Assembly: GCA_937127125.1 (NCBI GenBank)
Contig: CAKZLO010000034.1
Location: forward strand, 17,257-81,256
Origin: an uncultured Ardenticatenia bacterium
GTDB lineage: Bacteria; Chloroflexota; Anaerolineae; 4572-78; NAK82
Length of the DNA stretch: 64,000 nt
Direction: 5' to 3'
Both the position numbers and the translations under genes were made by a program. The notes under the pieces were generated by a model that saw nothing but the letters and a program-made list of their open reading frames with translations, did no database searches and was not told the DNA's origin. How positions within the stretch are numbered: the first letter of the stretch is position 1; each line of letters starts with the position of its first letter. Below, piece after piece: positions 3,113 to 51,859 of this stretch.

Positions 3113-3781
3113 ATGGGGGAACGTTATTTTGCCGGTGTGCGCCTCGACCTGAGGCAACGTATATTGATTACAGCGATGCTCCTGTTCGTGAGCCTTGGGT
3201 ATTTGCCACTAAATCGCCTGATGACGGGTGGTACAACGGTTGAGATATGGCTAGATCGCTTTGTGCCATTCTCTCCTGTATGGATTGTACCGTACCTGCT
3301 AGCTATTGTCTGGTGGGTTGTGGCCGGTCTATGGGCGTTTTGGTCTATGGAGGATGGGCTGTATTTGGCATTTGTTTCCTCATGGGTACTAGCGTGTCTG
3401 ATCGGCTTTGGGATCTTCATTTGTTATCCTACTTATATGGTACGTCCTGCTATCAGCGGTGACAGCTGGGCTGAGGTGATCGTCCGTTATATATACGAGC
3501 ATGACAGAACGTATAACGCCTTCCCTAGTATGCATCTTTGGGTTACAGTTACTATCGCCTTGTACTGGAGCTATTGGAAGCCAAAATGGCGTGCTTGGAT
3601 ATGGATTGCCACAATTATTGTGGCATCATCGACGGTTTTGTCTGGTCAACACTGGATCATGGATGTAGTTGGAGGCACACTTCTGGCGGTGGTATGTTAC
3701 TATTTGGGGCCAATGACAGCTGCTTTGGTTCTGCCTGCGATTCGACGATCATCCGTGAGACCTCCATCGGTTGATCTTTAG
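3113..3781 (+). CDS. PAP2-superfamily (PAP2_C / sphingolipid-synthase-like) integral membrane protein
   Basis: 222 aa and multi-TM. Motifs PSMH and SGQHWIMDVVGG resemble the C2/C3 motifs of PAP2 lipid phosphatases/phosphotransferases. Confidence 0.5.
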   Translation: MGERYFAGVRLDLRQRILITAMLLFVSLGYLPLNRLMTGGTTVEIWLDRFVPFSPVWIVPYLLAIVWWVVAGLWAFWSMEDGLYLAFVSSWVLACLIGFGIFICYPTYMVRPAISGDSWAEVIVRYIYEHDRTYNAFPSMHLWVTVTIALYWSYWKPKWRAWIWIATIIVASSTVLSGQHWIMDVVGGTLLAVVCYYLGPMTAALVLPAIRRSSVRPPSVDL

Positions 3782-8181: not shown

Positions 8182-8691
8182 GTGCTCGGAGAGCTCTCAT
8201 CTAAGTATGATGAAATGGCCACTTTAGAGCATTTCAGTGTGCTTAGCAGTGATGCGATTCGGACAAACTACCGTCTTGGTAGGTTTGTAGATTTGATCGG
8301 TTATCGTGTGCGTCCGCTCTCCGCTTCAGGAACAATAAGAGTGTCTCCGGGTGACACGATAATATTATGGGTGTACTGGCGTAACATTCAGCCATCTACG
8401 ACTGCTTACCGTGCGTTTATCCATCTGGGTGAAAACCCTATCTGGGCGCAGCAGGATGATGATCCAGCGTGTCGCTTGCCTACCTCGGTTTGGCGCGCAG
8501 GGCAATTGACACGTGGGCAATTTCGGCTTGTAGTTCCGCGTGGGATACCGATTGGACGGTATCCGTTGAGTCTAGGTCTATATGACCCGGTGACTATGGA
8601 GCGCTTGATCGTTATAGATGAGCATGGACAGCCTATTGGAGATTCTGTGTCACTGCTCACGGTCGAGGTATCGAGCTTATCTGGTGAGTAA
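8182..8691 (+). CDS. Stand-alone copy of the C-terminal extracytoplasmic domain usually found on GT-C/PMT_2-type glycosyltransferases (possible gene remnant)
   Basis: 169 aa: GYRV...SPGDTIILWVYWRNIQP...YRAFIHLG...WAQQDDDP...LPTSVWRAGQ...IPIGRYPLSLGLYDPVTMERL. In my experience this pattern is the C-terminal domain of Chloroflexi/cyanobacterial family-39-like transferases. No TM core is attached. Confidence 0.4.
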   Translation: MLGELSSKYDEMATLEHFSVLSSDAIRTNYRLGRFVDLIGYRVRPLSASGTIRVSPGDTIILWVYWRNIQPSTTAYRAFIHLGENPIWAQQDDDPACRLPTSVWRAGQLTRGQFRLVVPRGIPIGRYPLSLGLYDPVTMERLIVIDEHGQPIGDSVSLLTVEVSSLSGE

Positions 8692-8763: not shown

Positions 8764-8792
8764 TTGCTCGCCGTTCAGCTTAGTGTTACAAT
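8764..8792 (+). promoter_or_regulatory. Putative extended -10 promoter for the giant membrane-protein operon (TTGCTC-17-TGTTACAAT)
   Basis: TTGCTC at 8764-8769, a 17-nt spacer, and TACAAT at 8787-8792 preceded by TGT. This argues that the true CDS start is ATG 8842, not the track start at 8764. Confidence 0.4.
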
Positions 8793-8841
8793 CGTCTACC
8801 TTAGAAGCGTTCTCACGCCCCAATATGGCGTAAGGCCACCG

Positions 8842-11800
8842 ATGAGTCAGCTTATGTCCTCTGCGCCTTGGCATGTCCCAGACACATCTCAGTTGTCCCA
8901 CCTGCAAAAGTGGTTATTAGGGCTGATCCTGTTGTGTGGTGCAGCGCTGCGTTTCTACGACTTGTCTTGGGATCACGGCACCTTGCCGCATCCGGACGAA
9001 CGGTCTACGGTTGCGTTCTATGCGCCCTCATTGCGCTGGCCAGACAACTTTGAGCAGGCCCTGGATCCTCGGCGTTCACCTCTCAATCCCTTTTGGGACG
9101 CACAAGCTGGTCATCGGCGCAGCTACACCTATGGCCACTTCCCCTTGTATACGCTTGCGCTGACGGCTGCAGCGGTGCACAGCTTAGTGCCAGTGGCTCA
9201 AACGTTTGGCTTGCCCGCTGATATTGTTGCCTTTATGGAAGAGGCACGTTCTCCGGTGGGCTTCGCCATCATTGGCCGCTTTCTGATAGCGCTGGCTGAC
9301 ATAGCAAGTGTGTATTTGCTCTTCTTGTTGGGGCGACGTCTGTATGGTGCATGGGCAGGGTTGCTGGCAGCCGCTCTCTCTGCATTCACAGTGTTGCAAA
9401 TTCAGCTGGCACATTTCTTCGCAGTGGATCCTATTTCGGCCACTTTTGTGTTCATGGCTTTATATACCTCCATCCTCTTAGCCGAACGACGCAGCACAGG
9501 CGCGGCCTTATTGACCGGCTTGGCCATTGGCCTGGCCATCGCTTGCAAGTTCAGTGCACTGCCGATCGTAGCTGCGCCCGTTGTCGCTCTCATGCTCCAC
9601 CATAATGACAGGGGGGAGGCGGAAACATCCTCCTCTCACACCTCGAAGTGGGCCCTTCTGACCCTGGTGTTTTGTGTCGCTGCCGCGATATTCACACTCA
9701 CTTCCCCATTTGTGCTGCTCGACTTTCCAAACTTCTGGCAGGCTGTGGTGCAAGAGCAGGGTGACATGGTCTCCGGAGTGGCAGACCTTCCCTTCACGCG
9801 ACAGTATCGTGGAACAGTGCCTTATCTCTATTTCTTAGAGCAGCAGGTACTGTGGGGTATGGGGCCTCCGTTGGGTGTTTTAGCCCTTTTGGGACTCTTG
9901 TGGGTGATGTGGCGCGTGGTGCGTCGCCAAGCGATCATTGGCGAATATGTTATTTTGGCTTGGCTGGTCTTGTATTTCGGTCCGACAGGGCTTTTCTTGG
10001 CCAAATTTATGCGCTATATGGCTCCGGTGACACCCTTGTTGGTGCTCTTGGGAGCGGGGATGGTGGCCCATCGGGATTTTGCAGGGCGCTCAAAGGGCGA
10101 GATGACAGAGGCGGCGGGGAAACGCTTTGCCGCTTTACGTGGTATTGCTGGCGGTCTTGCGTTGCTGGGTGCTGTGATTTGGTCCCTGGCATTTGTGAAC
10201 GGCGTCTATGGCTCGGAGCATCCGTGGGTAACCGCTTCGCGTTGGGTGTATCAGAATATCCCAGATGGAGCTTGTATTGCTGCTGAACACTGGGAAGAAG
10301 GGTTTCCCCAGTCTTTGCCAGAACCAGGTATGAACCCTGCCGCGCATGGATATCGTCAGCCTCTGCTTCCTATGTACGAGGAAGATACTCCTGAAAAGTT
10401 TCAGATTATCAAAGAGACCCTGAAGCATTGTGACTACCTGGTGCTAGCTTCGAATCGACTCTGGCGTACCATTCCACGTCTGCCTCAGCGCTATCCCATG
10501 AGTGTGCGTTACTACGAGGCGCTGTTCAGCGGAGAGCTAGGCTTTGAGCAGATCTACTCCCTGTCGGTATCGCCACGCTTGGGTCCACTGGTCATTGATG
10601 ATCAGGCGGCGGATGAGAGCTTTACAGTCTATGATCATCCGCGTCCTATTATCTTTCACAAGGCGCGCCAGCTGGACGACGCTGAGTGGGAACAGATATT
10701 GGGAGGCCTATGGATAAAAGCAGTGCCAGGTTATGTGGGCCCGCCACCAGTATTGGCTTGGCTGCGCGCTGCATTTCGAAGAGAACACAGGGCACAGTTG
10801 CCCGAAGAGAAAGACGTAGAGAGACCAAAATCGCTGCTGTTAGACACCCCAGTGGATGAACTACCCATCGTAAATGATTTCCGTTGGAATGCTCTGGCAA
10901 ACAGCTCGGCCGTTATAGCCATCGTGTGCTGGTGGTTGGTCGCACAGCTTCTGGGTTGGCTGGTTTGGCCAATGGCGCGCAGATTGCTGAGACCTCTGGC
11001 TGATCAGGGTTTCCTGCTGGCGAAGAGTCTGGGTTGGTTGCTGGTTGGCTATGGAGTATGGTTGCTTTCAAGCCTGCGCGTGTTGCCCAATACGCTATCC
11101 ACTATTGGAATATGGGGATTGGTGCTCATAGTGGTGTCGGCAGGATTGTTGTGGCGAGATCGTTGCGCAGTGCGCGAGTTCTTAGAGCGTAAATGGCGTC
11201 TTGTCTTGGTGGGGGAGAGCATCTTTACAGGGGTGTTTCTCTACTTTGTTGGGTTGAGATTGCTGAACCCTGATCTATGGCAGCCATGGAACGGTGGTGA
11301 GAAGATGCTAGAGATAGGCTTTCTCAACGCCATTGTCAAGAGCGCCTATATGCCACCGTACGATCCATATTTCGCGGGGGGATACATTAATTATTACTAC
11401 TATGGTCTGTTTCTGGTTGGCATTCTTGTCAAATTAACCGGCATCCAGCCCACCGTGGCGTTCAACTTGGCTGTGCCTTTGCTGGCGGGGCTGACGGCGG
11501 GTAATGTTTTCTGTCTTGCCTCTCATTTAACACTCTCACTCAGCCAGCATCGGATCGATTCGCGTGGCCACGGAGACGAGCACCTTTTAGGCCGCCCAGT
11601 GTTAGTCGGCTTGTTGGCAGTAGCACTGGTGATGTTCATCGGAAATCTAGCCGGTTTCCGCCAGCTGGTGCGCTATCTTGAGGAGGCTAGTGGCAGCAGT
11701 TTTACCACAGGGTTGCCATTGATAGGCGAAGCAGTGCGAGCACTGTCAGGGCTGTGGCATGTGATATTTGATGGTGTGCGACTGCCACCTTACAGTTTCT

Positions 11801-13572
11801 GGGATCCCACCCGTGTGATTCCTGACACCATTAATGAATTTCCCTATTTCAGCTTCTTGTTTGCTGATTTGCATCCCCATCTTATCGCAATGCCATTTAC
11901 AGTTCTGGCATTGTCATTGATTTATATGTTGATGGTAAACCGCTCTGCGGACGGACCCATGCCTGTATACGTGAATGGCACGGGAGGAAACATAGGGCAG
12001 AGCTTAAGTGAACGTGTCTGTCGCGTTGGTGTAAGCATGTTCCGTGCTTTGTTGGGCGGCAAAATGGTGAACTGGTTGGCGCTTGCGTTCTGCTTGGGAG
12101 CGCTGGCGGCAATTAACACCTGGGACCTACCAACCTATACAGGTCTGGCAACCCTTGCCTTCTGGCTGGCGCTTTATCGTTCTGATCGCAGAAGGAAAGC
12201 TTCCAGCGAGCAGAATATCGCAATAGCATGGCCCGCCCGGCCAATACAGCGGGTGATACAAGCGATCGGTTTTGGCATCGCCACGCTGGCAACGGGTTAT
12301 CTGTTGTATTTGCCGTTTTTCGCTTTCTACCAGCCGCTTGATGTCGGGCTGGGTCTGGTGAGGGATAAGACCAGACTGGAACAGTTCCTATGGATTTGGG
12401 GGTTGTTCCTATTTGTGGGGTTCAGCTACTTGGTTGTTGCTGCGATACATCCACACTCGCGTCTGTGGGCAGCGCGCTGGCTCAGCTTGTGGTTGCGAAA
12501 TTGGAAAGTTGTACACCGTTTGCCGCAGCTGATGAGCCAATTGAATGTGGCGTCGACGTCAGACAAGAAGGTTTTCAGCTGGATAGCGGTGGCTGTATTA
12601 GTCGTGACGGTCTCATTGTGGATAGCGGGTTATCACGTTATTGCGTTGTTATTACCTGCTGTGTTTCTGGCGCTGGTATTGTTGTTACGACCAGAACTGT
12701 CGGATGGCCAAAGCTTCGCGGGTTTGTTGCTCTTCGCCACTCTGCTGATCCTTGTAGGGGTAGAGGTATTGTACCTGCGAGACTTCTTGGGTGGAAGCAG
12801 CTATTATCGTATGAACACCCTATTCAAGTTTTATATCCAGGCTTGGGTATTAGCGGGAGTGGCAACAGGTACACTACTGTTGGAACTATGGGAGCGCGTT
12901 AAGAGTTGGCCACGTGCTCACTGGACCTCAGCCTGGAAAGTGCTGTTAGCTGGTTTGCTAGTTGCTGCACTCGTGTATCCATTGTTTGGTACACGTACGC
13001 GTGTCCTTGACCGTTTTGATGATCCACCGCCAGTGGACACTCTCGACGGTATGGCTTATATGACCACCGGCAAATTGCACTGGCCGCAAGGCAACGTAAT
13101 TGATCTGAAATATGATTACGAAGCGATTCGATGGCTGCAGGAGCACGTTGTAGGCACTCCGGTAATCGCCGAGGCGAAGATCGGCTATTATCGGGAAGGG
13201 GGCATGCGCGTGTCCAGTTACACAGGCCTGCCTATGCCGTTGGGGGGATTGCATCAGAATGAGCAGCGCTGGCCAGAGCAAATTGGAGAGCGTGATGGGC
13301 TGTATATGGAGTTCTGGAACACAGCGGATCCTGAGAGAGCGTGGCAGCTGATTCAACAATTGCGCATCTCTTATATCTACATTGGTCAGCTGGAGCGAAC
13401 GCTGTATGATCCAGAGATCGCGCGCTTGGTGCAAGGCTGGGGGGTAAGCTTCCTGGATCCAGCCGGCTACGACAAATTTGACATACTGCGCGCGCAAGGG
13501 CGGCTAGAGCTCGTTTATGAAAATGCACGCACGCGCATTTATCGAGTGATCAGAGAGGTAAGTAAAACGTGA
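8842..13572 (+). CDS. Giant polytopic membrane protein: N-terminal GT-C/PMT_2-like module fused to a Chlor_Arch_YYY (DUF2298/TIGR03662-like) module
   Basis: ~1576 aa. The N-terminal module has LRFYDLSWDHGTLPHPDER, an acidic first-loop motif of GT-C type. From about nt 10900 onward there is a second module with NYYYYG (11392-11406), EFPYFSFLFADLHPH, NTWDLP and YLRDF..RMNTLFKFYIQAW, paralogous to the next gene. Confidence 0.75.
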   Translation: MSQLMSSAPWHVPDTSQLSHLQKWLLGLILLCGAALRFYDLSWDHGTLPHPDERSTVAFYAPSLRWPDNFEQALDPRRSPLNPFWDAQAGHRRSYTYGHFPLYTLALTAAAVHSLVPVAQTFGLPADIVAFMEEARSPVGFAIIGRFLIALADIASVYLLFLLGRRLYGAWAGLLAAALSAFTVLQIQLAHFFAVDPISATFVFMALYTSILLAERRSTGAALLTGLAIGLAIACKFSALPIVAAPVVALMLHHNDRGEAETSSSHTSKWALLTLVFCVAAAIFTLTSPFVLLDFPNFWQAVVQEQGDMVSGVADLPFTRQYRGTVPYLYFLEQQVLWGMGPPLGVLALLGLLWVMWRVVRRQAIIGEYVILAWLVLYFGPTGLFLAKFMRYMAPVTPLLVLLGAGMVAHRDFAGRSKGEMTEAAGKRFAALRGIAGGLALLGAVIWSLAFVNGVYGSEHPWVTASRWVYQNIPDGACIAAEHWEEGFPQSLPEPGMNPAAHGYRQPLLPMYEEDTPEKFQIIKETLKHCDYLVLASNRLWRTIPRLPQRYPMSVRYYEALFSGELGFEQIYSLSVSPRLGPLVIDDQAADESFTVYDHPRPIIFHKARQLDDAEWEQILGGLWIKAVPGYVGPPPVLAWLRAAFRREHRAQLPEEKDVERPKSLLLDTPVDELPIVNDFRWNALANSSAVIAIVCWWLVAQLLGWLVWPMARRLLRPLADQGFLLAKSLGWLLVGYGVWLLSSLRVLPNTLSTIGIWGLVLIVVSAGLLWRDRCAVREFLERKWRLVLVGESIFTGVFLYFVGLRLLNPDLWQPWNGGEKMLEIGFLNAIVKSAYMPPYDPYFAGGYINYYYYGLFLVGILVKLTGIQPTVAFNLAVPLLAGLTAGNVFCLASHLTLSLSQHRIDSRGHGDEHLLGRPVLVGLLAVALVMFIGNLAGFRQLVRYLEEASGSSFTTGLPLIGEAVRALSGLWHVIFDGVRLPPYSFWDPTRVIPDTINEFPYFSFLFADLHPHLIAMPFTVLALSLIYMLMVNRSADGPMPVYVNGTGGNIGQSLSERVCRVGVSMFRALLGGKMVNWLALAFCLGALAAINTWDLPTYTGLATLAFWLALYRSDRRRKASSEQNIAIAWPARPIQRVIQAIGFGIATLATGYLLYLPFFAFYQPLDVGLGLVRDKTRLEQFLWIWGLFLFVGFSYLVVAAIHPHSRLWAARWLSLWLRNWKVVHRLPQLMSQLNVASTSDKKVFSWIAVAVLVVTVSLWIAGYHVIALLLPAVFLALVLLLRPELSDGQSFAGLLLFATLLILVGVEVLYLRDFLGGSSYYRMNTLFKFYIQAWVLAGVATGTLLLELWERVKSWPRAHWTSAWKVLLAGLLVAALVYPLFGTRTRVLDRFDDPPPVDTLDGMAYMTTGKLHWPQGNVIDLKYDYEAIRWLQEHVVGTPVIAEAKIGYYREGGMRVSSYTGLPMPLGGLHQNEQRWPEQIGERDGLYMEFWNTADPERAWQLIQQLRISYIYIGQLERTLYDPEIARLVQGWGVSFLDPAGYDKFDILRAQGRLELVYENARTRIYRVIREVSKT

Positions 13573-16241
13573 TTGTTGCGACGGCAGCGTTGTGGTGGGG
13601 GTTATTGCAGCTGGTCGGCATAGCAGCTCTTCCACTGGCTTTCCGTTTATTTACCCGTCTGCCAGATCGCGGATACACCCTGGCGCGGCCCTTGGGACTC
13701 TTGCTGACCGGCTACGTGCTGTGGTTGGGTAGCAGTCTGGGTTTCTTAAAGAACACTGTTAGTGCGACAGTGTTGGCTATCGTTCTGATCGGCGCCGTTG
13801 GCATGTGGCTTTACGTGAAGCGTCTCAGGCAGGGTGACAATGTTCCGCTGAGCGTATGGATACGTGACCACGCAATGTATATAGCGTGCGTAGAGATACT
13901 GTTTGGTCTGGTTCTGCTCGGGTGGACGATCTTCAAAGCGTACAATCCGAACATTGAAACGACAGGCGGCGAGAAGTGGATGGAGATCGCTTTCATCAAC
14001 GCCACGCTGCGTAGTGAGCGTTTCCCGCCGCAAGATCCATGGCTGTCTGGCTATGGCATCAGCTATTATTACTTTGGTTATGTATTGATGGCGATGTTAA
14101 CACGCCTGTCTGGTTTGCCTTCGACTGTGGCGTACAACTTGTTTGTGCCCACTTTGTTTGCTCTGACGGTTAGTGGTGCTTTTGGCTTGGTATACAATCT
14201 CGTAACTGCTCGACGGCAGGAGGATGGATACAATCCGCTAAGTCGGGCTATCCGGTGGGTAGGAATATTTTACGGTTTGGTGGGTGCTATTTTCGTAGGG
14301 GTGATTGGCAATCTGGAAGGTCTGTTGGAGGTGGTGCACAGTCGGGGGTTGCTACCCGCCGGTTTCTGGCAGTGGCTTGACATAAAGGACATCAATATGC
14401 CGCCATCAACGGTAGGCAGCTGGATTCCCACTCGATTTATGTGGTGGTGGAGGGCATCACGTGTGATCCACGACTGCTCATTGCAGGGGTTGGCAACAGG
14501 TAACTGTAATCCGCCGGGTGGGGACTGGGAGGTGATTGACGAGTTCCCCTTTTTCAGCTTCTTGCTGGGCGATGTCCATCCACATGTGTTGGCGCTGCCG
14601 TTTGCATTGTTGAGCCTGGGGTTGATCCTGAACGTTTTCATCATGGCGGTGTGTGCTCGGGAAGATGGTGCATGGAGGACCTCTGTTACGTCTGGTTCGG
14701 GGGACAAGGTGTCAGCTGGGGTGCAAGATTCAGAAGGGCTTGCAAGAGCGCTCATCCCGCATCTATCGCATTTGATAAGAGGGACCTTCGGCGGTTGGTC
14801 GGAGTTTATTCTGATTGCTATCTGCCTGGGGGGACTCGGTTTTCTCAATACTTGGGACTTCCCTATTTACCTGGCCATTATGACCGTGGCGATTGCGGCG
14901 GGGCGTGCCCAACACAGTGGGGTGAATTGGGCAGGCGAAGCTATCGGAATGGGGGCTGGGTTGGGATTGTTAGGTGCCGGCCTCTATGCACCTTTCTATA
15001 TCGGGTTTCAGTCTCAGGCAGGTGGGTTGTTACCAAATCTGTTCAATCCCACAAAGGTGCAGCAGTTTCTTGTCTTTTGGGGACCTCTTCTGTTTGCTGT
15101 TGTCAGCTATCTGGTTGTGGTTTCCAGTCGACTGGGATGGCATTTTCATTGGGCGCGCCTGTCGACGTTGTTGCCAGTTGTCCTCGTGGTGCCCCTGATA
15201 GCTATGTTAACTCTCGTTGTAGTCGCTGCTGTATCACCAGCCTTGCGCCCTTATGTGGATGGAATTCTACACGATCCCCATATGCAATCTTTAATTGGCC
15301 AGCCCTCTGTTTGGTCGGTGGTGCTCCTGGCGTTACGCCTTCACCTGGGCAACCCGCTTACATGGCTGATGCTGAGCGGTCTGTTGGTTTGGATATTACT
15401 GCTTTGGCCTCCGCGTTTTGGCCTTCCAGATTATGGACAAAGGAAGAGCAGCTCGCTCAGTCCTCCGGATCGTTTTGCGTTGATCTTAATTGGTGCAGGA
15501 GTACTGTTGCCACTAATTGTCGAATTTGTGTATTTGCGGGACAACTTTGGTATCCGCATGAACACTGTGTTCAAGTTTTACTACCAGGCGTGGGTCTTGC
15601 TAGCCGTCTCGGGTGCTTACGGATTGTGGGCTGCCGATGTGCATTTCACCTGGAAAAGTAGCTCAAGTGCAAACGGGTCGCGTAGGATATTGAGTCGGCA
15701 GGCCTTGCATGGGTTATGGCGATTGGTAGCTATAAGCTTGGTGTTGGCTGGACTGGTCTATCCTGTTTTAGCTGTTCCCAGCAAACTGTCAGGCTACGAG
15801 GGCGACCCGCGTCTAGACGGTATGGAATGGCTGAGCCAAATGCATCCGGGCGATTATGCTGCCATTAGATGGCTGCAGACTAATGTGCATGGCGAAGCCG
15901 TGATCCTGGAGGCGCCGGGGGACCGTTACGCGGCCTATGACTATGTTGGGCGTGTATCTGCATTAACCGGACTGGCGACGTTGCTCGGTTGGGGCAATCA
16001 CGAACACCAGTGGCGTGGAAGTTATGAAGTGCCTGCCCGCCGAGAGCCAGATATCGAGGTGCTCTTCAATGGGCTAGATCTATCGCGTACTGCGGCATTG
16101 CTGGATCAGTATGATATTACTTATGTCTATGTGGGAGAGCTGGAACGGAGACGTTATCATGCCAGTGGACTAGCTAAGTTTGAGCAGCTGATGGATGTCG
16201 TCTATAAGCAAGATGACATTGTTATTTATCAGCGCCGCTGA
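13569..16241 (+). CDS. Chlor_Arch_YYY (DUF2298/TIGR03662-like) polytopic membrane protein
   Basis: 890 aa. The GTG start overlaps the upstream stop (GTGA). Motifs are SYYYFG (14064-14078), EFPFFSFLLGDVHPH, NTWDFP and YLRDNFGIRMNTVFKFYYQAW, with a C-terminal soluble domain (AAIRWLQ...VYVGELERRRY). Confidence 0.75.
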   Translation: MIVATAALWWGLLQLVGIAALPLAFRLFTRLPDRGYTLARPLGLLLTGYVLWLGSSLGFLKNTVSATVLAIVLIGAVGMWLYVKRLRQGDNVPLSVWIRDHAMYIACVEILFGLVLLGWTIFKAYNPNIETTGGEKWMEIAFINATLRSERFPPQDPWLSGYGISYYYFGYVLMAMLTRLSGLPSTVAYNLFVPTLFALTVSGAFGLVYNLVTARRQEDGYNPLSRAIRWVGIFYGLVGAIFVGVIGNLEGLLEVVHSRGLLPAGFWQWLDIKDINMPPSTVGSWIPTRFMWWWRASRVIHDCSLQGLATGNCNPPGGDWEVIDEFPFFSFLLGDVHPHVLALPFALLSLGLILNVFIMAVCAREDGAWRTSVTSGSGDKVSAGVQDSEGLARALIPHLSHLIRGTFGGWSEFILIAICLGGLGFLNTWDFPIYLAIMTVAIAAGRAQHSGVNWAGEAIGMGAGLGLLGAGLYAPFYIGFQSQAGGLLPNLFNPTKVQQFLVFWGPLLFAVVSYLVVVSSRLGWHFHWARLSTLLPVVLVVPLIAMLTLVVVAAVSPALRPYVDGILHDPHMQSLIGQPSVWSVVLLALRLHLGNPLTWLMLSGLLVWILLLWPPRFGLPDYGQRKSSSLSPPDRFALILIGAGVLLPLIVEFVYLRDNFGIRMNTVFKFYYQAWVLLAVSGAYGLWAADVHFTWKSSSSANGSRRILSRQALHGLWRLVAISLVLAGLVYPVLAVPSKLSGYEGDPRLDGMEWLSQMHPGDYAAIRWLQTNVHGEAVILEAPGDRYAAYDYVGRVSALTGLATLLGWGNHEHQWRGSYEVPARREPDIEVLFNGLDLSRTAALLDQYDITYVYVGELERRRYHASGLAKFEQLMDVVYKQDDIVIYQRR

Positions 16242-16486: not shown

Positions 16487-16759
16487 ATCGCCGGCTATGT
16501 CCGGGACGTAAGTGGAAACAAGAGTTCAATCTGATTGTAGGCTGGATGTTGTTGTCACTTTGAGACTGGTTGCCGGGCGTGCCGTCTCCCCTTTTTCAGG
16601 CATAGGGTTAGGGGGCTGAGCACGTCCGAGAGAGGGTCGTATGGATGGAATGATGTTGGTGTATGGAGTTTGTGAAGTGTATCACTTTTCCTCAGATCGT
16701 GGCATCGTAATGCTCACCCTGCGGAGTATCTCTCATAGAATTCTTGCCTTATTCTGTGC

Positions 16760-16769
16760 GTGATATCAC
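16760..16769. promoter_or_regulatory. Perfect 10-bp palindrome GTGATATCAC just upstream of the hdrC RBS (candidate operator)
   Basis: GTGATATCAC lies 23 nt before ATG 16792. A related GTGTATCACTT occurs about 84 nt upstream (16677-16687). Confidence 0.25.
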
Positions 16770-16791
16770 TTACCCAAGGAGGTATCTACCC

Positions 16792-17373
16792 ATGACAGCA
16801 ACTGCTATCGCTGCGCGAGCGCCCACGTTTCTTGAAGAGGTGATCGCGCGCACTCCTGGTGAGTCCCACCTGGAACGGTGTATCCAGTGTGGTACTTGTG
16901 GTGGTTCTTGTCCTTCCGGGGCAGATATGGAACACACCCCGCGTGGACTGTTCGCTCTGATCAATGCCGGCTTGAGGGAACTGGTCCTGCGTAGCAATGC
17001 CCCGTGGTATTGCGTGTCGTGCTATTACTGTACGGTGCGATGTCCCCAGCAGATCCATATCACCGACGTAATGTATACACTGAAACGCATGGCAATTGAT
17101 GAAGGCTACTACACGGAGTCGACAGCGCGTGATGCACCAGAGTTTTCCAAGACCTTCATCGATTTTGTGGAAAGCAATGGTCGCAGTTTTGAGCTCGGCT
17201 TGGCCACTGCTTACCACTTGCGCCATCGCCCGCTCAATGCTGTTGGTATGGTGCCAATGGCGGTGGGGATGCTTCGTCGTGGACGTATGGACCTCGTACC
17301 GACGAGGATCAAAGGCATCAAACAGCTCCAAGCGATTCTTAAGAGGGCCAAGGAATTGGGAGGTGCAAAATGA
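16792..17373 (+). CDS. hdrC: Heterodisulfide reductase subunit C-like (2x[4Fe-4S])
   Basis: Two ferredoxin motifs, CIQCGTCGGSCP and CVSCYYCTVRCP. ATG 16792 lies 9 nt after AAGGAGG. The track's earlier start at 16744 lacks an RBS. Confidence 0.8.
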   Translation: MTATAIAARAPTFLEEVIARTPGESHLERCIQCGTCGGSCPSGADMEHTPRGLFALINAGLRELVLRSNAPWYCVSCYYCTVRCPQQIHITDVMYTLKRMAIDEGYYTESTARDAPEFSKTFIDFVESNGRSFELGLATAYHLRHRPLNAVGMVPMAVGMLRRGRMDLVPTRIKGIKQLQAILKRAKELGGAK

Positions 17374-18332
17374 GGTACGGGTATTATCCCGGCTGTTCCC
17401 TCGAGCGCAGTGCGGCCGCTTATCACCAGTCGGCAATGGCTGTAGTGCAAACGTTGGGGATTGATCTGGTCGAGATTGACGATTGGAACTGTTGCGGGGC
17501 GACCGAGTACTTCTCAATCAACTTACTGCCTGCTTACGCCCTTGTGGCGCGCAACTTAGCGTTGGCGCAGGATCAGGGAATCAGCAATCAACTGGTGGCT
17601 CCATGTAGTGCCTGCTTCCTGAACCTTACCAAGACCGATCGGTATATGATGGAGTCTTCTAAACTGGCTGCTGACGTCAATGAGGCGCTGGCAGCTGGTG
17701 GGTTGCATTACACCCCTGGCACCGTACGGGTACGTCATCTGCTAGAGGTGATTGTGAATGACGTAGGCTACGATGCAGTAGCTGCACGGGTGAGCAAGCC
17801 GCTAACCGGATTGCGCGTAGCAGCTTACTATGGCTGCCTCATTGTGAGGCCAGGGTATGGAGGGATATTCGATGACCCGGAGCATCCTACTGCCTTGGAC
17901 AAGCTAATGCGTGTATTAGGTGCAGAGGTGGTGGATTTCCCGTTGCGAGCGCAGTGCTGTGGTGGTCATATGACACAGATCAGCCAGGAGGTGGCATTCG
18001 AGATGATCCGCCGTCTCCTGAAGAATGCCGCCGACTACGAGGCAGACGTGATCGTGACAGTGTGTCCTATGTGCCAGCTCAACTTGGATGCCTATCAACC
18101 CAACGTGAACCAGTTTTTCGGGACTGATTACACGATACCTGTGCTGTACTTTACCCAACTGATGGGGCTGGCCTTTGGTGCTTCCCCGATCGAATTAGGC
18201 ATCGGCAAGGAGTTTGTGGATGCTCGGCCTGCTCTGGATAAGATTGGGGTAGCGCTGCCGTTGACCGAAGCGCCACGTAGGCCGGAGAGACCAAAGGAGG
18301 CTCTTCCGATGCCGCGTATGGAGGAGGAATAA
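17370..18332 (+). CDS. hdrB: Heterodisulfide reductase subunit B-like (two CCG domains)
   Basis: 320 aa with YYPGCSL, WNCCGA and AQCCGGH cysteine-rich CCG motifs. ATGA overlap with hdrC. Confidence 0.85.
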   Translation: MRYGYYPGCSLERSAAAYHQSAMAVVQTLGIDLVEIDDWNCCGATEYFSINLLPAYALVARNLALAQDQGISNQLVAPCSACFLNLTKTDRYMMESSKLAADVNEALAAGGLHYTPGTVRVRHLLEVIVNDVGYDAVAARVSKPLTGLRVAAYYGCLIVRPGYGGIFDDPEHPTALDKLMRVLGAEVVDFPLRAQCCGGHMTQISQEVAFEMIRRLLKNAADYEADVIVTVCPMCQLNLDAYQPNVNQFFGTDYTIPVLYFTQLMGLAFGASPIELGIGKEFVDARPALDKIGVALPLTEAPRRPERPKEALPMPRMEEE

Positions 18333-18334
18333 AC

Positions 18335-20347
18335 ATGAACGAAGAACGCATTGGGGTATACGTATGCCATTGTGGCAGTAATATTGCTGGCACAGTGGCT
18401 GTGGAGGAGGTAGCTCAATGGGCTGCCAAGTTGCCAAATGTGGTGGTGTCGCGTGATTACAAATTTATGTGCTCCAGCTTGGGCCAGGAGCTGGTAGAAA
18501 AGGACATCAAGGAGCTCGGTCTGACACGCGTCGTGGTGGCAGCATGCTCCCCCCATATGCATGAGCGTACGTTCCGCGCGACATGCGAACGTGCAGGGCT
18601 GAATCCCTTCTTGTTCGAGATGGCCAATATCCGTGAGCTCGACTCGTGGGCGACGGATGATCGCGCGGCTGCGACCCAGAAAGCGAAGGCGATGGTGAGC
18701 GCGGCGGTGCGGCGTGTTGTTTACCATCAGCCTCTCCAATTGCTGCCGGTTAAGATCAATCCCAACACATTGATCGTCGGGGGAGGGGTAGCCGGCATTA
18801 CTGCCGCTTTGGAGATCGCTAACGCTGGTTATCACGTGTATCTAGTTGAGCGCGAACCCTCGATCGGTGGACATATGGCCCAGCTGGACAAGACGTTCCC
18901 TACGCTGGATTGCTCGGCATGCATTCTAACGCCTAAGATGGTGGACGTGGCTCAGAACAAGAATATTACTCTGCTCAGCTGGAGCCAGGTTGAGGCTGTT
19001 GAAGGATATGTGGGCAATTTCACTGTCACAGTGCGCAAGAAGGCGCGCTACGTGAACGAGGAGAAGTGCACGGGCTGCGGCATCTGTATCGAGAAGTGCC
19101 CCAAGAAGGTGATAGATGAAGTCTTTGAGGCAGGCTTGGGTTACCGCAAGGCAATCTATCGCCCCTTCCCGCAGGCGGTGCCCAAGTATCCGGTGATCGA
19201 TACGTCCAATTGTATTTTCTTCCAACGCGGTAAGTGCAAGGCTTGCCAGATGTTCTGCCCCACCGATGCGATAGACTTCGAGCAGCAGGACCAGATCCTC
19301 AAGCTCGAAGTGGGCAACATCATCTTGGCGATCGGGTACGACACTTTTGACCCGCGGCGTATCCCACAATACGGGTATGGCCGGCTAGCCAATGTGTTCA
19401 CCAGTCTTGAGTTTGAACGTATGGTCAATGCAGCTGGCCCCACAGGCGGTCGCATTGTATTGCGGGATGGGGTAACAACGCCTAAGAGTGTGGCGATCAT
19501 CCACTGTGTGGGATCGCGCGATAAGAACTACAACGAGCACTGTTCGCGCATTTGTTGCATGTACTCGCTGAAGTTCTCCCATCTCTTGCACGAGCGGTTG
19601 CCTGATGCCCAGGTGTATGAGTTCTACATTGATATTCGCGCCACGGCTAAGCGCTATGAGGAATTCTACCATCGCGTCTTGGAGGAAGGAACTCGCTTCA
19701 TCCGTGGTCGCGTGGCGGAGGTGACCGACGCGGCGCGTATGCCCGGTGAGGAAGGCAAACTAATCGTGCAGTATGAAGACACATTAATCGGCAAGCAGCG
19801 TCGCCTACCAGTGGACATGGTGATTCTGAGCCTTGGCATGGAAGCGCGCCGTGACTCGCGTGAGGTGGCCCAAATCTTTGGTCTAGGATGCGAGTACAAT
19901 GGCTTCTTCATCGAACGGCATCCCAAGCTCGATCCAGTTAACACAATGACCGAAGGCATCCAAATCGCTGGAGCGTGTCAGGGACCAATGGCCATTCCTG
20001 AGGCAGTAGCACAGGGGGCTGCTGCAGCCGCTCGTGTGCTCTCGTTGATCAGCCAGGGCACTGTGATGATGGAGCCGGTGCGGGCACACATCGATGCCGA
20101 CAAATGTTCCGGTTGTCGTATCTGCAACAACCTGTGCCCTTACAATGCGATAGTTTTCCACGAGGATCGCAAGGTTTCGGAGGTGATCACGGCGCTCTGC
20201 CAGGGGTGTGGCGCTTGTGTGGCGGCCTGCCCAAGTGCTGCGATTACTGGTGCTCATTTCACAGACGAGCAGGTAATGGCACAGATCGAGGGTATGCTGT
20301 GGGATGTGCAACCACAGTTTGCTATGACCTCTATGGAGACAAGGTGA
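18335..20347 (+). CDS. hdrA: Heterodisulfide reductase subunit A-like (FAD + multiple FeS)
   Basis: 670 aa with the FAD fold IVGGGVAGITAALEIA, the HdrA-specific CVGSRD...HCSRICC, and several CxxCxxCxxxCP ferredoxin motifs. Confidence 0.9.
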   Translation: MNEERIGVYVCHCGSNIAGTVAVEEVAQWAAKLPNVVVSRDYKFMCSSLGQELVEKDIKELGLTRVVVAACSPHMHERTFRATCERAGLNPFLFEMANIRELDSWATDDRAAATQKAKAMVSAAVRRVVYHQPLQLLPVKINPNTLIVGGGVAGITAALEIANAGYHVYLVEREPSIGGHMAQLDKTFPTLDCSACILTPKMVDVAQNKNITLLSWSQVEAVEGYVGNFTVTVRKKARYVNEEKCTGCGICIEKCPKKVIDEVFEAGLGYRKAIYRPFPQAVPKYPVIDTSNCIFFQRGKCKACQMFCPTDAIDFEQQDQILKLEVGNIILAIGYDTFDPRRIPQYGYGRLANVFTSLEFERMVNAAGPTGGRIVLRDGVTTPKSVAIIHCVGSRDKNYNEHCSRICCMYSLKFSHLLHERLPDAQVYEFYIDIRATAKRYEEFYHRVLEEGTRFIRGRVAEVTDAARMPGEEGKLIVQYEDTLIGKQRRLPVDMVILSLGMEARRDSREVAQIFGLGCEYNGFFIERHPKLDPVNTMTEGIQIAGACQGPMAIPEAVAQGAAAAARVLSLISQGTVMMEPVRAHIDADKCSGCRICNNLCPYNAIVFHEDRKVSEVITALCQGCGACVAACPSAAITGAHFTDEQVMAQIEGMLWDVQPQFAMTSMETR

Positions 20348-20351
20348 AACA

Positions 20352-20828
20352 ATGAACGACTCGTATGAACCCGTTATCGTCGGTTTCCTGTGCAACTGGT
20401 GTTCTTACCGTGCTGCTGACCTGGCTGGCACATCCCGTCTCCATTACGCACCAAATATGCGGCCTATTCGTGTGATGTGCAGCGCTCGAGTGGAGCCGCA
20501 GTTTGTCTTGAAAGCTCTGCGCGAGGGCGCTGATGGTGTGTTGATCGCAGGTTGCCACCCCGGTGAATGTCACTATGTGGATGGCAACATCAAAGCGCTA
20601 AGACGCTATGAACTGCTCAAGCGGATGTTGCGTCAACTGGGTATAGAAGAGGAGCGTGTCCAGCTCGTCTGGGCAGCAGCTTCCGAAGGTAATGTGCTGG
20701 CCGATGCAGTGAATCGTATGACCGAACAGCTGCGCCGCCTAGGGCCCTTGCGCTGGCGTGAGACAGTCTTGGGTGGCGATGCTCAGCCCGAAGAACGCGC
20801 TGGTGAAATGATGGCCAAGGAGGTTTGA
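20352..20828 (+). CDS. mvhD: Methyl-viologen-reducing hydrogenase delta subunit (MvhD-like)
   Basis: 158 aa with FLCNWCSY and GCHPGECHY, the cysteine pattern characteristic of MvhD. Confidence 0.85.
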   Translation: MNDSYEPVIVGFLCNWCSYRAADLAGTSRLHYAPNMRPIRVMCSARVEPQFVLKALREGADGVLIAGCHPGECHYVDGNIKALRRYELLKRMLRQLGIEEERVQLVWAAASEGNVLADAVNRMTEQLRRLGPLRWRETVLGGDAQPEERAGEMMAKEV

Positions 20829-20832
20829 CGTT

Positions 20833-21852
20833 ATGATGGCCAAGAAAAAACCGAGATTTGCCATGTACTGGGCGGCTTCTTGCGGTGGCTGTGAGATCTC
20901 GACACTCAACATCGGGGACAAGATTCTGGCGGTGGATGAAGCGTTTGACATCGCCTTCTGGCCGTGTGTGGCTGATTTCAAGGTGAAAGATGTTGAGAGG
21001 TATCCGGATGGCTATATTGACTTGTGTCTTTTCAATGGAGCTATCCGCAATTCCGAAAACGAGGAAATGGCCCACCTGCTGCGCGAGAAGTCGAAGGTGC
21101 TAGTCGCGTTTGGTTCGTGCGCCAGCGAGGGGTGTATTCCCGGCTTATCTAACCTGACCACTGCGCAGGCGACCTTGCGCGCGGTGTATCTGGATAACCC
21201 TTCTACGGACAATCCTAAGAAGGTGCTGCCACAACCATTTACCAAGGTCCCAGAGGGCACAATCCGAATCCCAGAATTCTACGAGCGCGTGAAGTCGCTT
21301 GACCAGGTGGTGCCAGTGGATTACGTGATGCCGGGTTGTCCACCAGAGGCGAAACAAATTGCGGCGGTAATGGATGCTGTTATCACAGGTGTCGCACTGC
21401 CCCCGCCTGGCCGGACTGTCATTGGTGCAGGTAATGTGGCGGTTTGTGAGGAATGTCCCCGTCAGAAGAACGTCAAACAGATCAAACGCTTTTACCGTCT
21501 CCATGAAATCACCCCGGATCCCGAGATCTGTCTGCTCGAGCAGGGCATCGTGTGTATGGGGATTGCCACGCGTGCTGGTTGTGGGGCGCTGTGCCCAAGG
21601 GTGAATATGCGCTGTGAGGGGTGTTACGGGCCGCTGAACGGCATAGAGGACCAAGGGGCCAACATGGTTGCGGCAATTGCCTCAGTAATTGAGGAGGGAT
21701 CGGGTCCGCTGGCTGGCGTTGATGAAGCTGAGCTGCAGCGCCGCATTGGCGAGATAATGGAAACCTTAGTCGACCCAGCGGGTACCTTCTATCGCTTCAA
21801 CATGGCTCACTCGCTGCTGATGCGTGCCCGTTTCAAAGGGGATGTTGTCTAG
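20833..21852 (+). CDS. mvhG: [NiFe]-hydrogenase small subunit (MvhG-like)
   Basis: 339 aa with the N-terminal proximal-cluster motif YWAASCGGCEIS, then GSCASEGCIPG, and C-terminal cysteine clusters. Confidence 0.8.
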   Translation: MMAKKKPRFAMYWAASCGGCEISTLNIGDKILAVDEAFDIAFWPCVADFKVKDVERYPDGYIDLCLFNGAIRNSENEEMAHLLREKSKVLVAFGSCASEGCIPGLSNLTTAQATLRAVYLDNPSTDNPKKVLPQPFTKVPEGTIRIPEFYERVKSLDQVVPVDYVMPGCPPEAKQIAAVMDAVITGVALPPPGRTVIGAGNVAVCEECPRQKNVKQIKRFYRLHEITPDPEICLLEQGIVCMGIATRAGCGALCPRVNMRCEGCYGPLNGIEDQGANMVAAIASVIEEGSGPLAGVDEAELQRRIGEIMETLVDPAGTFYRFNMAHSLLMRARFKGDVV

Positions 21853-21867
21853 AAAGGAGCAGCTTAG

Positions 21868-23349
21868 ATGAAGCAGATTATGATAGATCCAATCACGCGC
21901 TTGGAAGGCCACGGGAGGATTGACATCTTCCTGGATGACAAGGGTGAAGTAGCAAATACTTACTTTGTCATTCCTGAGCTGCGTGGTTTTGAACAGTTCT
22001 GCGTGGGACGACCGGTGGAGGAAATGCCCCGTATTACTAACCGCATTTGTGGCGTCTGTCCTGAAGCACACCACATGGCGGCCACTAAAGCATTAGATGC
22101 ACTCTACCATGTGGAACCCACGCCGGCGGCCAAGAAGATACGTGAAATGTTCTATTCGGCCTTCTATGTGGCGGATCATACCACGCATTTCTACGCGTTG
22201 GGTGGTCCTGATTTTGTGGTAGGCCCGGACGCTCCGCCAGCGGAACGAAATATCCTCGGTGTGGTGCACAAGGTGGGGTTGGAGATCGGCAAGCAGGTGA
22301 TTGATGCACGTGTCCGCAACCATCATGTCATTCAAATGGTGGGAGGACGAGGTGTCCATCCGGTGGCTGGTCTGCCTGGAGGCTGGAGTAAGTCTATAAC
22401 GAAGGAGGAACGGGACGAGATTGAGCAGATCGCCCGCCAGAACGTCGACTTTGGTCTGTTCAGCTTGAAGGTGTTCGAAGACATCGTGCTCAGCAACCAA
22501 GAATATGTAGACCTCATAACCTCTGATGTCTATACACATCGCACCTATTACATGGGTACAGTGGACGCCAGCAATCGCGTCAACTTCTACGATGGCATGG
22601 TGCGTGTGGTGGACCCAGACGGGAATGAATTCGTCAAGTATCATCCCAAGGACTACTTACAGCACATCGCGGAACACGTTGAGCCATGGACCTACCTTAA
22701 GTTTCCCTTCCTTAAGGCAGTTGGTTGGAAGGGATTCGTGGATGGGGTGGATAGTGGTGTCTATGTCGCTACACCCCTGTCACGATTGAATGCCGCGGAC
22801 GGCATGGCGACGCCGCGGGCGCAAGAAGCGTTTGAAAAGATGTACGAGACGCTGGGCAGCAAGAAGGTGAATGGGCGTTATGAGCCAGTGCACTTCCGAC
22901 TGGCGACCCATTGGGCACGGTTAATTGAGCTTTTGTATGCCGCCGAACGCATGTTGGAACTAATCGGTGATCCAGAGATCACTGACCCGAACACACGAGC
23001 ACCCATAACAGCCACTCCGGATGAAGGTGTAGGCTGTGTTGAAGCTCCCCGCGGCACACTAACACATCACTATTGGACAGACGAGCGAGGGATTCTGACG
23101 AAGGTGAACCTGATCGTGGGTACCACCAACAATTATGCACCCATCGCGATGTCTGTCAGGAAGGCGGCGCAATCTCTGATTAAGAAGGGCACTGTGATCA
23201 CGGATGGGCTGCTCAATCGTATCGAGATGGCTTTCCGGGCGTACGATCCTTGCTTGGGCTGTGCCACGCATTCGCTGCCGGGCCAAATGCCCTTGGAGGT
23301 GACCATTTACGCGCCGGATGGCAGCGTGATCGAGCATCTGAAGCGGTGA
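21868..23349 (+). CDS. mvhA: [NiFe]-hydrogenase large subunit (MvhA-like, probable group 3c)
   Basis: 493 aa with the L1 motif RICGVCPEAHH and L2 motif DPCLGCATH (23245-23271), followed by a 25-aa C-terminal tail of the kind removed by a maturation protease. Confidence 0.9.
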   Translation: MKQIMIDPITRLEGHGRIDIFLDDKGEVANTYFVIPELRGFEQFCVGRPVEEMPRITNRICGVCPEAHHMAATKALDALYHVEPTPAAKKIREMFYSAFYVADHTTHFYALGGPDFVVGPDAPPAERNILGVVHKVGLEIGKQVIDARVRNHHVIQMVGGRGVHPVAGLPGGWSKSITKEERDEIEQIARQNVDFGLFSLKVFEDIVLSNQEYVDLITSDVYTHRTYYMGTVDASNRVNFYDGMVRVVDPDGNEFVKYHPKDYLQHIAEHVEPWTYLKFPFLKAVGWKGFVDGVDSGVYVATPLSRLNAADGMATPRAQEAFEKMYETLGSKKVNGRYEPVHFRLATHWARLIELLYAAERMLELIGDPEITDPNTRAPITATPDEGVGCVEAPRGTLTHHYWTDERGILTKVNLIVGTTNNYAPIAMSVRKAAQSLIKKGTVITDGLLNRIEMAFRAYDPCLGCATHSLPGQMPLEVTIYAPDGSVIEHLKR

Positions 23350-28846: not shown

Positions 28847-28880
28847 GTCCCTCCCCTATATAAAGGACACTTTTATTACC

Positions 28881-30311: not shown

Positions 30312-30340
30312 TTGACCATCTCTTAGCTCTGCGATATAGT
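30312..30340 (+). promoter_or_regulatory. Putative promoter of the aro operon (TTGACC-17-TATAGT)
   Basis: TTGACC at 30312-30317, a 17-nt spacer, and TATAGT at 30335-30340. GGGAGG (30355-30360) precedes ATG 30366. Confidence 0.45.
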
Positions 30341-30365
30341 GGCAGATGTCAAGTGGGAGGCATGT

Positions 30366-31670: not shown

Positions 31671-31731
31671 CAAGAGTGGCCAGATGTTATGCGGTTTTGA
31701 CCGGGATGGATGGGATGAGGAGTGGTCTCAG

Positions 31732-32664: not shown

Positions 32665-32714
32665 GAGGGCTGCAATAGACCGTTTGTCATTCGTGAGAAA
32701 GTGGTTAGACGAAA

Positions 32715-33920: not shown

Positions 33921-33928
33921 GCTCTCCT

Positions 33929-48011: not shown

Positions 48012-48305
48012 TTATTTATTTGTGTCTTTCCCAGAATCACCCACCCCGGCGACACGTGCCAACATGTGACGCATCACACCGGATTGAGAGCCTCCAGCAT
48101 TGCGATAAGCTCGCTGGCGCTGCAGGAGATGGTGAGTCCTGAGCAAACGGCGCAAACGAGAAAGGCCAGATGCTGGCTGTGCGCGCAACCAGCGGCCGAG
48201 AAGGGCAGCATGAACCCCGGGACGTGTCCAACTGCGACGTGCTAGCTCTGCAATTTTCTCCAAGGTGTTCAAGACGGTGGGATCACCTATGTCCTGTTCG
48301 TTCAT
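48012..48305 (-). CDS. Hypothetical Arg-rich 97-aa protein, ATGA-coupled to lspA
   Basis: An ORF fills the lspA-rluD gap, and its ATG at 48305 overlaps the lspA stop. I recognise no motif, and high GC could generate it by chance. Confidence 0.3.
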   Translation of the reverse strand: MNEQDIGDPTVLNTLEKIAELARRSWTRPGVHAALLGRWLRAQPASGLSRLRRLLRTHHLLQRQRAYRNAGGSQSGVMRHMLARVAGVGDSGKDTNK

Positions 48306-48856: not shown

Positions 48857-48986
48857 ATCTCTGTCCTCCAAATATCGCTTATGGATTGTAATGCACGTGC
48901 AAGGAGGGTGCAAGGATGGTCGAAGTCGGATGGTAAGTGCACATTCTAGCGCTTCTTTAGCTAGCGTTTGGGGCAGGCTCCTTCGC

Positions 48987-49640: not shown

Positions 49641-49647
49641 ATGCTGA

Positions 49648-51797: not shown

Positions 51798-51859
51798 CCG
51801 TCGCCTGTGATGTTCCAAGATTATGGGGAGGTAATGAAATCCTCGGCTTTTTTTCGTTC

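Follow-up and report, generated by a model that had tools for sequence, protein, structure and literature searches.

An overlapping gene pair encoding giant membrane proteins

The genes described here, A and B, lie in tandem on the forward strand of a 64,000-nucleotide (nt) stretch of contig CAKZLO010000034.1 from an Anaerolineae bacterium (Chloroflexota); "the window" refers to this whole stretch. They encode very large membrane proteins of 1576 and 890 amino acids (aa), whose modules and coordinates are collected in Table 1. The long open reading frame (ORF) that contains A runs from 8764 to 13572 when counted from its first TTG. The start of A is uncertain by ~25 codons, which has no effect on the other results: besides the ATG adopted here, TTG codons at 8764 and 8893 are possible starts, and an identical protein in an independent JGI gene call is 1559 aa long, which would match TTG 8893. 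Gene B begins with a GTG (13569 to 13571) placed on the TGA stop codon of A (13570 to 13572) and has no start before this codon, because a TAA at 13563 to 13565 lies in its frame. Direct reading of the sequence places a Shine-Dalgarno-like GAGAGG 10 nt ahead of this GTG, within the 3′ end of A. The two genes are translationally linked. The ORF coordinates and lengths agree exactly with an original prediction made from the sequence alone, which had also described both proteins as extremely hydrophobic; the grand average of hydropathy (GRAVY) reaches +0.34 in A and +0.45 in B, and Kyte-Doolittle values of at least 1.6 are reached in 22 and 14 windows of 19 aa, respectively.

The C-terminal part of A and the whole of B were proposed to belong to the Chlor_Arch_YYY/DUF2298 family, and family models support this assignment. 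TIGR03662 scored 516.8 bits over aa 692 to 1531 of A and 548.4 bits over aa 6 to 889 of B (cut-off, 300.25), and PF10060 scored 409.6 bits for A (E = 2.8e-122) and 388.8 bits for B (E = 5.7e-116), against a cut-off of 27.8. Both proteins are regular members of the family, with no feature that sets them apart. Each module carries the YYYxG motif (NYYYYG at aa 850 to 855 of A; SYYYFG at aa 165 to 170 of B) within a highly hydrophobic polytopic protein of ~700 to 900 aa per module, with a GRAVY of +0.41 for the A module, that of B being the value given above, and 13 to 14 strongly hydrophobic segments. The motif blocks GGEK, YYY, EFP[YF]FSF, D[LV]HPH, NTWD[LF]P, YLRD, and RMNT[LV]FKFY.QAW, from which paralogy had been suggested, were each located in both A and B; most are invariant among 42 B-type homologues and largely invariant among 36 A-type homologues. 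Aligned end to end, aa 686 to 1576 of A are 29% identical to B (BLASTP E = 3e-78), and a profile-profile comparison of A-type YYY with the B family gave a probability of 100% (E = 5e-120), a similarity that, judged on sequence, is far beyond chance. The family is large: in one search that scored 8,000 candidates, almost every one was a match. Literature matches to "YYY domain" were set aside, since they concern the Y_Y_Y domain of hybrid two-component sensors, which is unrelated to DUF2298.

The N-terminal module of A

The first ~685 aa of A (the N-module) had been predicted to form a separate polytopic module with a GT-C-like glycosyltransferase fold, and both family models and structure prediction are in line with this. 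PF13231 (PMT_2) matched aa 146 to 278 with 47.2 bits against a gathering cut-off of 26.1. The second family considered, PF02366 (PMT), failed to match; neither PF02366 nor MIR gave a match in ORF A at E ≤ 1, and some distant relatives of the N-module match PF02366 weakly. Because A has no PF02366 match and no MIR domain, we consider the NCBI label "family 39" carried by its relatives to be generic.

An AlphaFold2 (AF2) model of aa 1 to 685, built from an alignment of 36 fused homologues, reached a predicted local distance difference test (pLDDT) value of 82.2 and a predicted template modeling (pTM) score of 0.84. A Foldseek search of this model against PDB returned 28 matches at E ≤ 1e-3, and all 28 were GT-C enzymes, among them yeast and human STT3, AglB, PglB, ALG9, ALG12, ArnT, Pmt4, Pmt1, AftD, and AftA; the top match was STT3 (E = 2.4e-9), and template modeling (TM) scores ranged up to 0.54. 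By family model and predicted fold, the N-module is a bona fide GT-C glycosyltransferase module. In the GT-C enzymes PMT, ArnT, and PglB, catalytic acidic residues sit just after the first helix. The acidic first-loop motif of the original prediction, LPHPDER, lies at aa 48 to 54 of A, and its residues H50-P51-D52-E53-R54 are invariant in 37 sequences. In the AF2 model, HPDER falls 13 residues past helix 20-37, at the start of helix 51-63; its extracytoplasmic location is assumed from the GT-C paradigm.

Fused, split, and single-chain forms

We asked how widespread the fusion of a PMT_2-type module to a YYY module is. With full-length A as query, 672 proteins were obtained at E ≤ 1e-5. PF13231 and PF10060 were found together in 120/120 protein clusters among the matches listed, which have lengths of 1,370 to 1,720 aa and stem for the most part from metagenome-assembled genomes of Anaerolineae and other Chloroflexota. 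Some of these proteins already carry automatic names, "glycosyltransferase family 39 protein" or "DUF2298 domain-containing protein" at NCBI and "YYY domain-containing protein" at JGI. We then scored every long ORF at 80 reference-genome loci anchored on B orthologues, all from Chloroflexota, with hidden Markov models (HMMs) of the N-module and of both YYY subfamilies. Upstream sequence was informative at 64 loci, and at 46 of these an A-type gene lies upstream of B on the same strand (38 complete and fused, 7 cut by a contig end, and 1 split); 29 of the 46 overlap B or end within 300 nt of it. The other 18 of the 64 loci have no A within at least 6 kb upstream of B. The spacing between A and B ranges from overlap up to 5.7 kb, and other genes, for example one for an extracytoplasmic function (ECF) sigma factor, may intervene.

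With 38 of 39 complete upstream partners fused, the PMT_2-YYY fusion is the dominant form in Anaerolineae. Its recurrence in the 120 listed clusters and the 38 reference loci shows that the architecture is real rather than an assembly error, and the same recurrence, together with the public automatic names, overturns the original view that it had not been described. The exception is locus L061, in which the N-module and YYY module lie in different frames, 8 nt apart. An exhaustive search in which the N-module was the only query returned 6,830 representative clusters at E ≤ 1e-3 (1,439 at E ≤ 1e-30), whose lengths fall into three groups of ~600 to 700, ~1,400 to 1,800, and 2,000 to 2,600 aa. 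A split form occurs in a more distant lineage (L083:3934-13958 and L084; Logan ERR13605529 and ERR13602194), where a PMT_2 relative of 674 aa (37% identity) is followed after a 245-nt gap by DUF2298 proteins of 770 and 821 aa and a PMT_2-NHL protein of 1056 aa. Conversely, relatives of 2,100 to 2,600 aa combine PMT_2, two DUF2298 modules, and C-terminal TPR repeats in one chain (P0375, 2591 aa; P0319, 2121 aa; L051:25-6108 is similar). This single chain corresponds to a fusion of A with B and is similar to the TMTC-type GT-C enzymes that bear TPR repeats. The TIGR03662 entry itself mentions a class of exactly this kind, in which an additional N-terminal region is joined to two copies of YYY and to TPR repeats.

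The N-YYY-YYY series is thus conserved as three genes, two genes, or one polypeptide, depending on the lineage. Since the same series occurs in all three forms, its parts probably cooperate physically, and fusion and fission of this kind is a classical type of sequence evidence that argues for such cooperation.

Conserved neighborhood and Agl23-like partners

ORFs from 83 loci, comprising 82 fetched loci and the first 27 kb of the window, were clustered to find genes that accompany the pair. The most conserved neighbor, present in 57/83 loci and usually directly downstream of B, encodes an Agl23-like membrane protein of ~610 aa, often followed by a paralogue of ~1,050 to 1,250 aa. Recurrent neighbors upstream are a GT4 glycosyltransferase, an S-adenosylmethionine-dependent methyltransferase, and a further PMT_2 protein of ~700 aa (extra PMT_2). 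Orthologous genes, C and C′, are present in the window. The product of C scored 476 bits against an HMM built from the neighbors of B, had no Pfam match, and reached 99.9 bits with TIGR03663, the NCBIfam model for "flippase activity-associated protein Agl23," below its cut-off of 126.25. The product of C′ exceeded this cut-off with 241.5 bits and carries five NHL repeats (E = 7.9e-45); it is a paralogue of C (hhalign probability, 100%) and comes after C in related loci. Profile comparisons relate the N-module to extra PMT_2 (97%) and C to extra PMT_2 (96%), with 68% for the third pairing, of the N-module with C. By these relations, the Anaerolineae cluster would hold five to six GT-C-type modules.

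Two further features of related loci were observed. An ECF-type sigma-70 gene lies between A and B or just after B in 13 related loci (for example, L002:15550-16119, L024:8304-8897, and L027:8614-9117), which suggests envelope-stress-type regulation of the cluster; no such gene is present in the A-B region of the window. Loci with B and no preceding A (for example, L037:9211-9978, L047:9131-9883, and L060:2442-3182) have a gene for a ComEA-like SLBB and helix-hairpin-helix protein directly upstream of B, with C ~3 kb downstream rather than adjoining. They seem to represent a second and separate setting for YYY genes.

Predicted fold and topology of the YYY module

The AF2 model of B, based on 41 homologues, had a pLDDT of 83.2 and a pTM of 0.90. 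Searched against PDB with Foldseek, it gave only three matches with a probability of 1.00, and these came from three different GT-C families: the C-mannosyltransferase DPY19 (E = 4.3e-4), STT3A (E = 4.8e-4; TM-score of 0.41 on the target), and AftA (E = 2.3e-3). All other matches, including pyrophosphatases, MFS, MATE, and MurJ proteins, had probabilities of 0.12 or less. The specificity of this similarity is striking and its scores are modest, so that the predicted structure hints weakly at a GT-C-like fold.

Topological reasoning from the fusion offers a view of where a YYY active site might lie. The N-module, like other GT-C enzymes, is expected to end outside the membrane, and the YYY module would then start outside, its first three helices having Arg/Lys-rich inner loops. 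By way of the fourth helix (aa 102 to 125 of B), the chain would emerge outside in the invariant loop NPNxET.GGEKWME...PPxDPW...SYYY, which in the model holds two short helices, like the first external loop of GT-C enzymes. The invariant residues E130, E135, E139, and D156 of B come after this helix, and the fused topology and loop charges would place them outside. Invariant Asp, Glu, His, Arg, and Lys residues are numerous in the loop motifs of both YYY paralogues. Because charged residues are so dense there, the modules may contain an active site rather than act as a scaffold, and the retention of all of them in both paralogues makes a dead duplicate less likely than two sites that are active or bind a ligand.

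Some candidate relationships did not hold. Sequence offers no basis for calling YYY modules GT-C enzymes, as no profile or sequence link to any GT-C family was obtained. The conserved motif LPDRGY after the first YYY helix was considered as a counterpart of HPDER and rejected, since the fused topology and Arg-rich flanks would imply a cytoplasmic loop. Homology between the soluble domain that ends the N-module and the C-terminal domain of YYY was not established, the hhalign match being limited to 17 columns (ASRWVYQNIPDG / AIRWLQTNVHGE) at a probability of 25%.

Other genes in the window

The genes flanking A and B have unrelated housekeeping functions. Upstream are genes for an ADP-forming acyl-CoA synthetase, a PAP2-superfamily phosphatase, RsmF, signal peptidase I, and a class II aldolase, followed by a 169-aa ORF directly upstream of A that matched nothing in Pfam or NCBIfam. 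PAP2-type enzymes can recycle polyprenyl pyrophosphate; the phosphatase gene here lies 5 kb upstream, with unrelated genes in between, and does not recur in other loci. Directly downstream of B is an Hdr-like Fe-S/CCG/FAD cluster followed by genes for the small and large subunits of a NiFe-hydrogenase, which appears unrelated to the glycosylation genes.

Elsewhere in the window, two aminotransferase genes and a dehydrogenase gene are scattered that possibly supply modified nucleotide sugars for envelope glycans. A further gene encodes a protein made up of the LPG_synthase_TM domain (PF03706, E = 1.2e-53), a membrane domain tied to lipid translocation in MprF. A shikimate pathway operon encodes EPSP synthase, shikimate dehydrogenase, chorismate synthase, and a fused shikimate kinase/dehydroquinate synthase, and cofC- and cofD-like genes of F420 biosynthesis stand beside a lipoprotein signal peptidase gene. 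Downstream of C′ comes the gene for a family-4 uracil-DNA glycosylase and then, overlapping it, a 394-aa ORF; this ORF has no Pfam match, and its sole, very weak match is to a squalene/oxidosqualene cyclase model (E = 3e-4).

Table 1. Positions of A, B, their parts, and other genes within the window
Feature	Coordinates	Strand	Length	Description
ORF A	8842-13572	+	1576 aa	From ATG 8842; predicted PMT_2-type GT-C module fused to YYY/DUF2298 module
N-module of A	8842-10896	+	aa 1-685	~13 membrane helices, then soluble alpha/beta domain (aa ~457-650)
YYY module of A	10897-13569	+	aa 686-1576	Paralogue of B with all family motifs
Shine-Dalgarno-like GAGAGG	13553-13558	+		
GTGA overlap	13569-13572	+		GTG of B on TGA of A
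ORF B	13569-16241	+	890 aa	GTG start; stand-alone YYY/DUF2298 protein, C-terminal soluble domain (aa ~745-890)
Gene C	56034-57935	-	633 aa	Orthologue of the ~610-aa gene after B; Agl23-like, PMT_2-related
Gene C′	52639-56001	-	1120 aa	Agl23-family membrane domain (aa 38-674) and C-terminal NHL-repeat beta-propeller
PAP2-superfamily phosphatase	3113-3781	+		
ORF upstream of A	8182-8691	+	169 aa	
Hdr-like and NiFe-hydrogenase genes	16744-23349	+		
Two DegT/DnrJ/EryC1-type aminotransferases and a UDP-glucose/GDP-mannose dehydrogenase	28839-30203; 38107-39432; 60651-62066	+		
Shikimate pathway operon	30339-35569	+		
LPG_synthase_TM protein	35627-36637	+		
Lipoprotein signal peptidase	48302-48913			
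cofC- and cofD-like genes	48987-50661	-		
ORF downstream of C′	50805-51989	-	394 aa	
Family-4 uracil-DNA glycosylase	51860-52642			

Comparison with known glycosyltransferase systems

The N-module shares with ArnT (GT83), PMT (GT39), and TMTC enzymes the GT-C fold, a first external loop that bears an acidic Asp-Glu motif, and a soluble domain past the last helix, and the O-mannosyltransferases of the TMTC type have C-terminal TPR repeats, as do distant relatives of the N-module. Unlike A, characterized ArnT, PMT, and TMTC enzymes are not fused to a second polytopic module of ~890 aa. In structure, the N-module is matched best by STT3, AglB, and PglB (E = 2.4e-9 to 1e-7; TM-scores of ~0.40 to 0.46), although Foldseek ranking among GT-C families is no indicator of substrate. 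These oligosaccharyltransferases resemble A and B in having a polytopic core and a C-terminal soluble domain and differ in that there is no sequence similarity and no WWDYG-type motif was identified in A or B.

The mycobacterial enzymes EmbA/EmbB/EmbC and AftA to AftD are several large paralogous GT-C enzymes encoded together, as are the GT-C-type modules of the Anaerolineae cluster, and AftA and AftD are among the fold matches of the A and B modules. Emb and Aft arabinosyltransferases act outside the membrane on a polyprenyl-phosphate sugar, as homo- or heterodimers. In contrast to A and B, they belong to another phylum; there is no sequence relation between the two groups, and nothing in A and B points to arabinose or a wall polysaccharide as product.

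In three-component (Gtr-type) systems, a polyprenyl-phosphate glycosyltransferase, a small flippase, and a GT-C enzyme cooperate, such that a monosaccharide bound to a lipid is made inside, flipped, and used outside. The pathway that we propose below for A and B would follow the same general logic, with several GT-C-type modules rather than one and with the role of the flippase falling to Agl23-like proteins. Likeness to archaeal Agl23 (TIGR03663) resides in the partner genes, over the cut-off in C′ and weaker in C, and not in A or B. According to one report (PMC11182771), Agl23 of Haloarcula hispanica is tied to the use or flipping of hexose-P-dolichol, as its proposed flippase; the protein rescues yeast rft1-delta and, when purified, translocates M5GN2-PP-Dol in liposomes. 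A bacterial version such as C′ would instead use bacterial polyprenyl carriers, and C′ differs further in bearing an extra NHL beta-propeller.

Proposed function and alternatives

We lean modestly toward the view that A and B are subunits of an extracytoplasmic, polyprenyl-phosphate-sugar-dependent envelope-glycosylation complex of this bacterium. The complex would be placed in the cytoplasmic membrane. On the outer face of this membrane, the GT-C module would use a polyprenyl-phosphate-linked donor and pass its sugar to an envelope acceptor, which could be a protein or a wall glycan. Agl23-like partners would supply or translocate the lipid-linked sugar. The two YYY modules may pair as a heterodimer, like Pmt1-Pmt2 or EmbA-EmbB; they would be very divergent GT-C-type enzymes and would probably add further transferase sites. 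Because they would have three extra helices at the N terminus, their invariant GGEKWME/PPxDPW/YYY loop would correspond to the catalytic loop, the first external one. The TPR repeats or NHL propellers that some relatives and partners bear hint that the acceptor may be a protein or a polymer. Within this model, the donor, the acceptor, and catalysis by the YYY modules are what we infer. The original suggestion that YYY proteins act in the same envelope glycosylation step as the fused transferase is strengthened by the fused and split variants, by the conserved clustering with Agl23-like genes and further genes of the GT-C type, and by the weakly GT-C-like fold of YYY, and stops short of proof.

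Several results weigh against this proposal. Comparison of YYY with the N-module, extra PMT_2, and C by hhalign gave probabilities below 3%, with no significant relation; PDB sequence searches with A, B, and the B-family profile gave no meaningful match; and a permissive Pfam scan (E ≤ 10) of 42 YYY members found no recurrent GT-C match. Which side of the membrane the YYY motifs face was a matter of reasoning from the topology of the fusion and the distribution of charges rather than of computation. In the window, C and C′ lie 36 kb from B on the opposite strand, and neither adjoins B. No GT2 polyprenyl-phosphate sugar synthase and no GtrA/SMR-type flippase was found in the window or among the recurrent neighbors, another difference from three-component systems. 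Furthermore, B occurs at 18 of the 64 informative loci without a nearby upstream A, and a literature search on DUF2298, TIGR03662, and PF10060 found no functional or experimental study of the YYY family.

The chief alternative is that only the PMT_2-type modules (the N-module, extra PMT_2, and possibly C and C′) are transferases, with YYY as a non-catalytic partner that might translocate or recycle the polyprenyl-phosphate carrier, hold the growing acceptor, or form a membrane scaffold. We regard this as unlikely, if still deserving of serious attention. It would account for the lack of profile similarity between YYY and any GT-C family and for the weakness of the fold matches, and constant fusion or adjacency to a bona fide GT-C enzyme is as compatible with an accessory role as with catalysis. 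Agl23, the one characterized protein among the neighborhood families, likewise resembles GT-C enzymes in sequence, and what has been demonstrated for it is the translocation of lipid-linked glycans, not sugar transfer. However, the significant structural neighbors of YYY are all GT-C enzymes, with the transporters and pyrophosphatases far behind, and the dense invariant acidic, His, and basic loop residues of both paralogues are typical of active sites. A mere accessory would also be at odds with the 18 loci in which a YYY gene stands without a fused partner in the upstream region surveyed.

It seems very improbable that fusion and adjacency are functionally meaningless, with GT-C and YYY serving unrelated processes and joined only by the genomic history of one clade. 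The unrelated housekeeping genes on either side of the pair in the window (signal peptidase, aldolase, and Hdr-like Fe-S proteins) and the variable spacing of A and B, with intervening genes at some loci, are what such a history might leave behind. Yet the order of the modules persists through fusion and fission and at 37% identity, and the same Agl23-like genes recur downstream in 57 of the 83 loci, a persistence not expected without selection. That an assembly error or a frameshift has artificially joined two genes into the 1576-aa ORF is hardly credible: L061 and the more distant lineage do have the N-module and YYY as separate reading frames or genes, but the frame is uninterrupted in the window, the identical protein appears in the independent JGI call, and the fusion recurs in the 120 listed clusters and 38 reference loci, which come from many independent assemblies.

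Implications for the YYY family

A and B are ordinary members of catalogued families in an architecture typical of their clade. What is new is the occurrence of the series in split, two-gene, and one-chain forms, the weak fold matches of B to GT-C enzymes alone, and the linkage to Agl23-like genes. Returning to the envelope-glycosylation complex that we favor, a broader proposal can be made tentatively, and we think it somewhat more apt to fail than to hold: DUF2298/YYY may be an unrecognized, highly divergent branch of GT-C, and paired YYY modules, PMT_2-type GT-C enzymes, and Agl23-like translocators may form one conserved multi-enzyme machine in Chloroflexota and, by the reported range of the family, Archaea, building an envelope glycan or glycoprotein outside the membrane. 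In Chloroflexota, YYY proteins count among the largest membrane proteins; they belong to a family without an assigned function, which the fold hint and the Agl23 linkage turn into the subject of a testable proposal. The cluster could also inform the debate on the role of Agl23-type proteins, and it offers a concrete entry point to the poorly understood envelopes of Chloroflexota.

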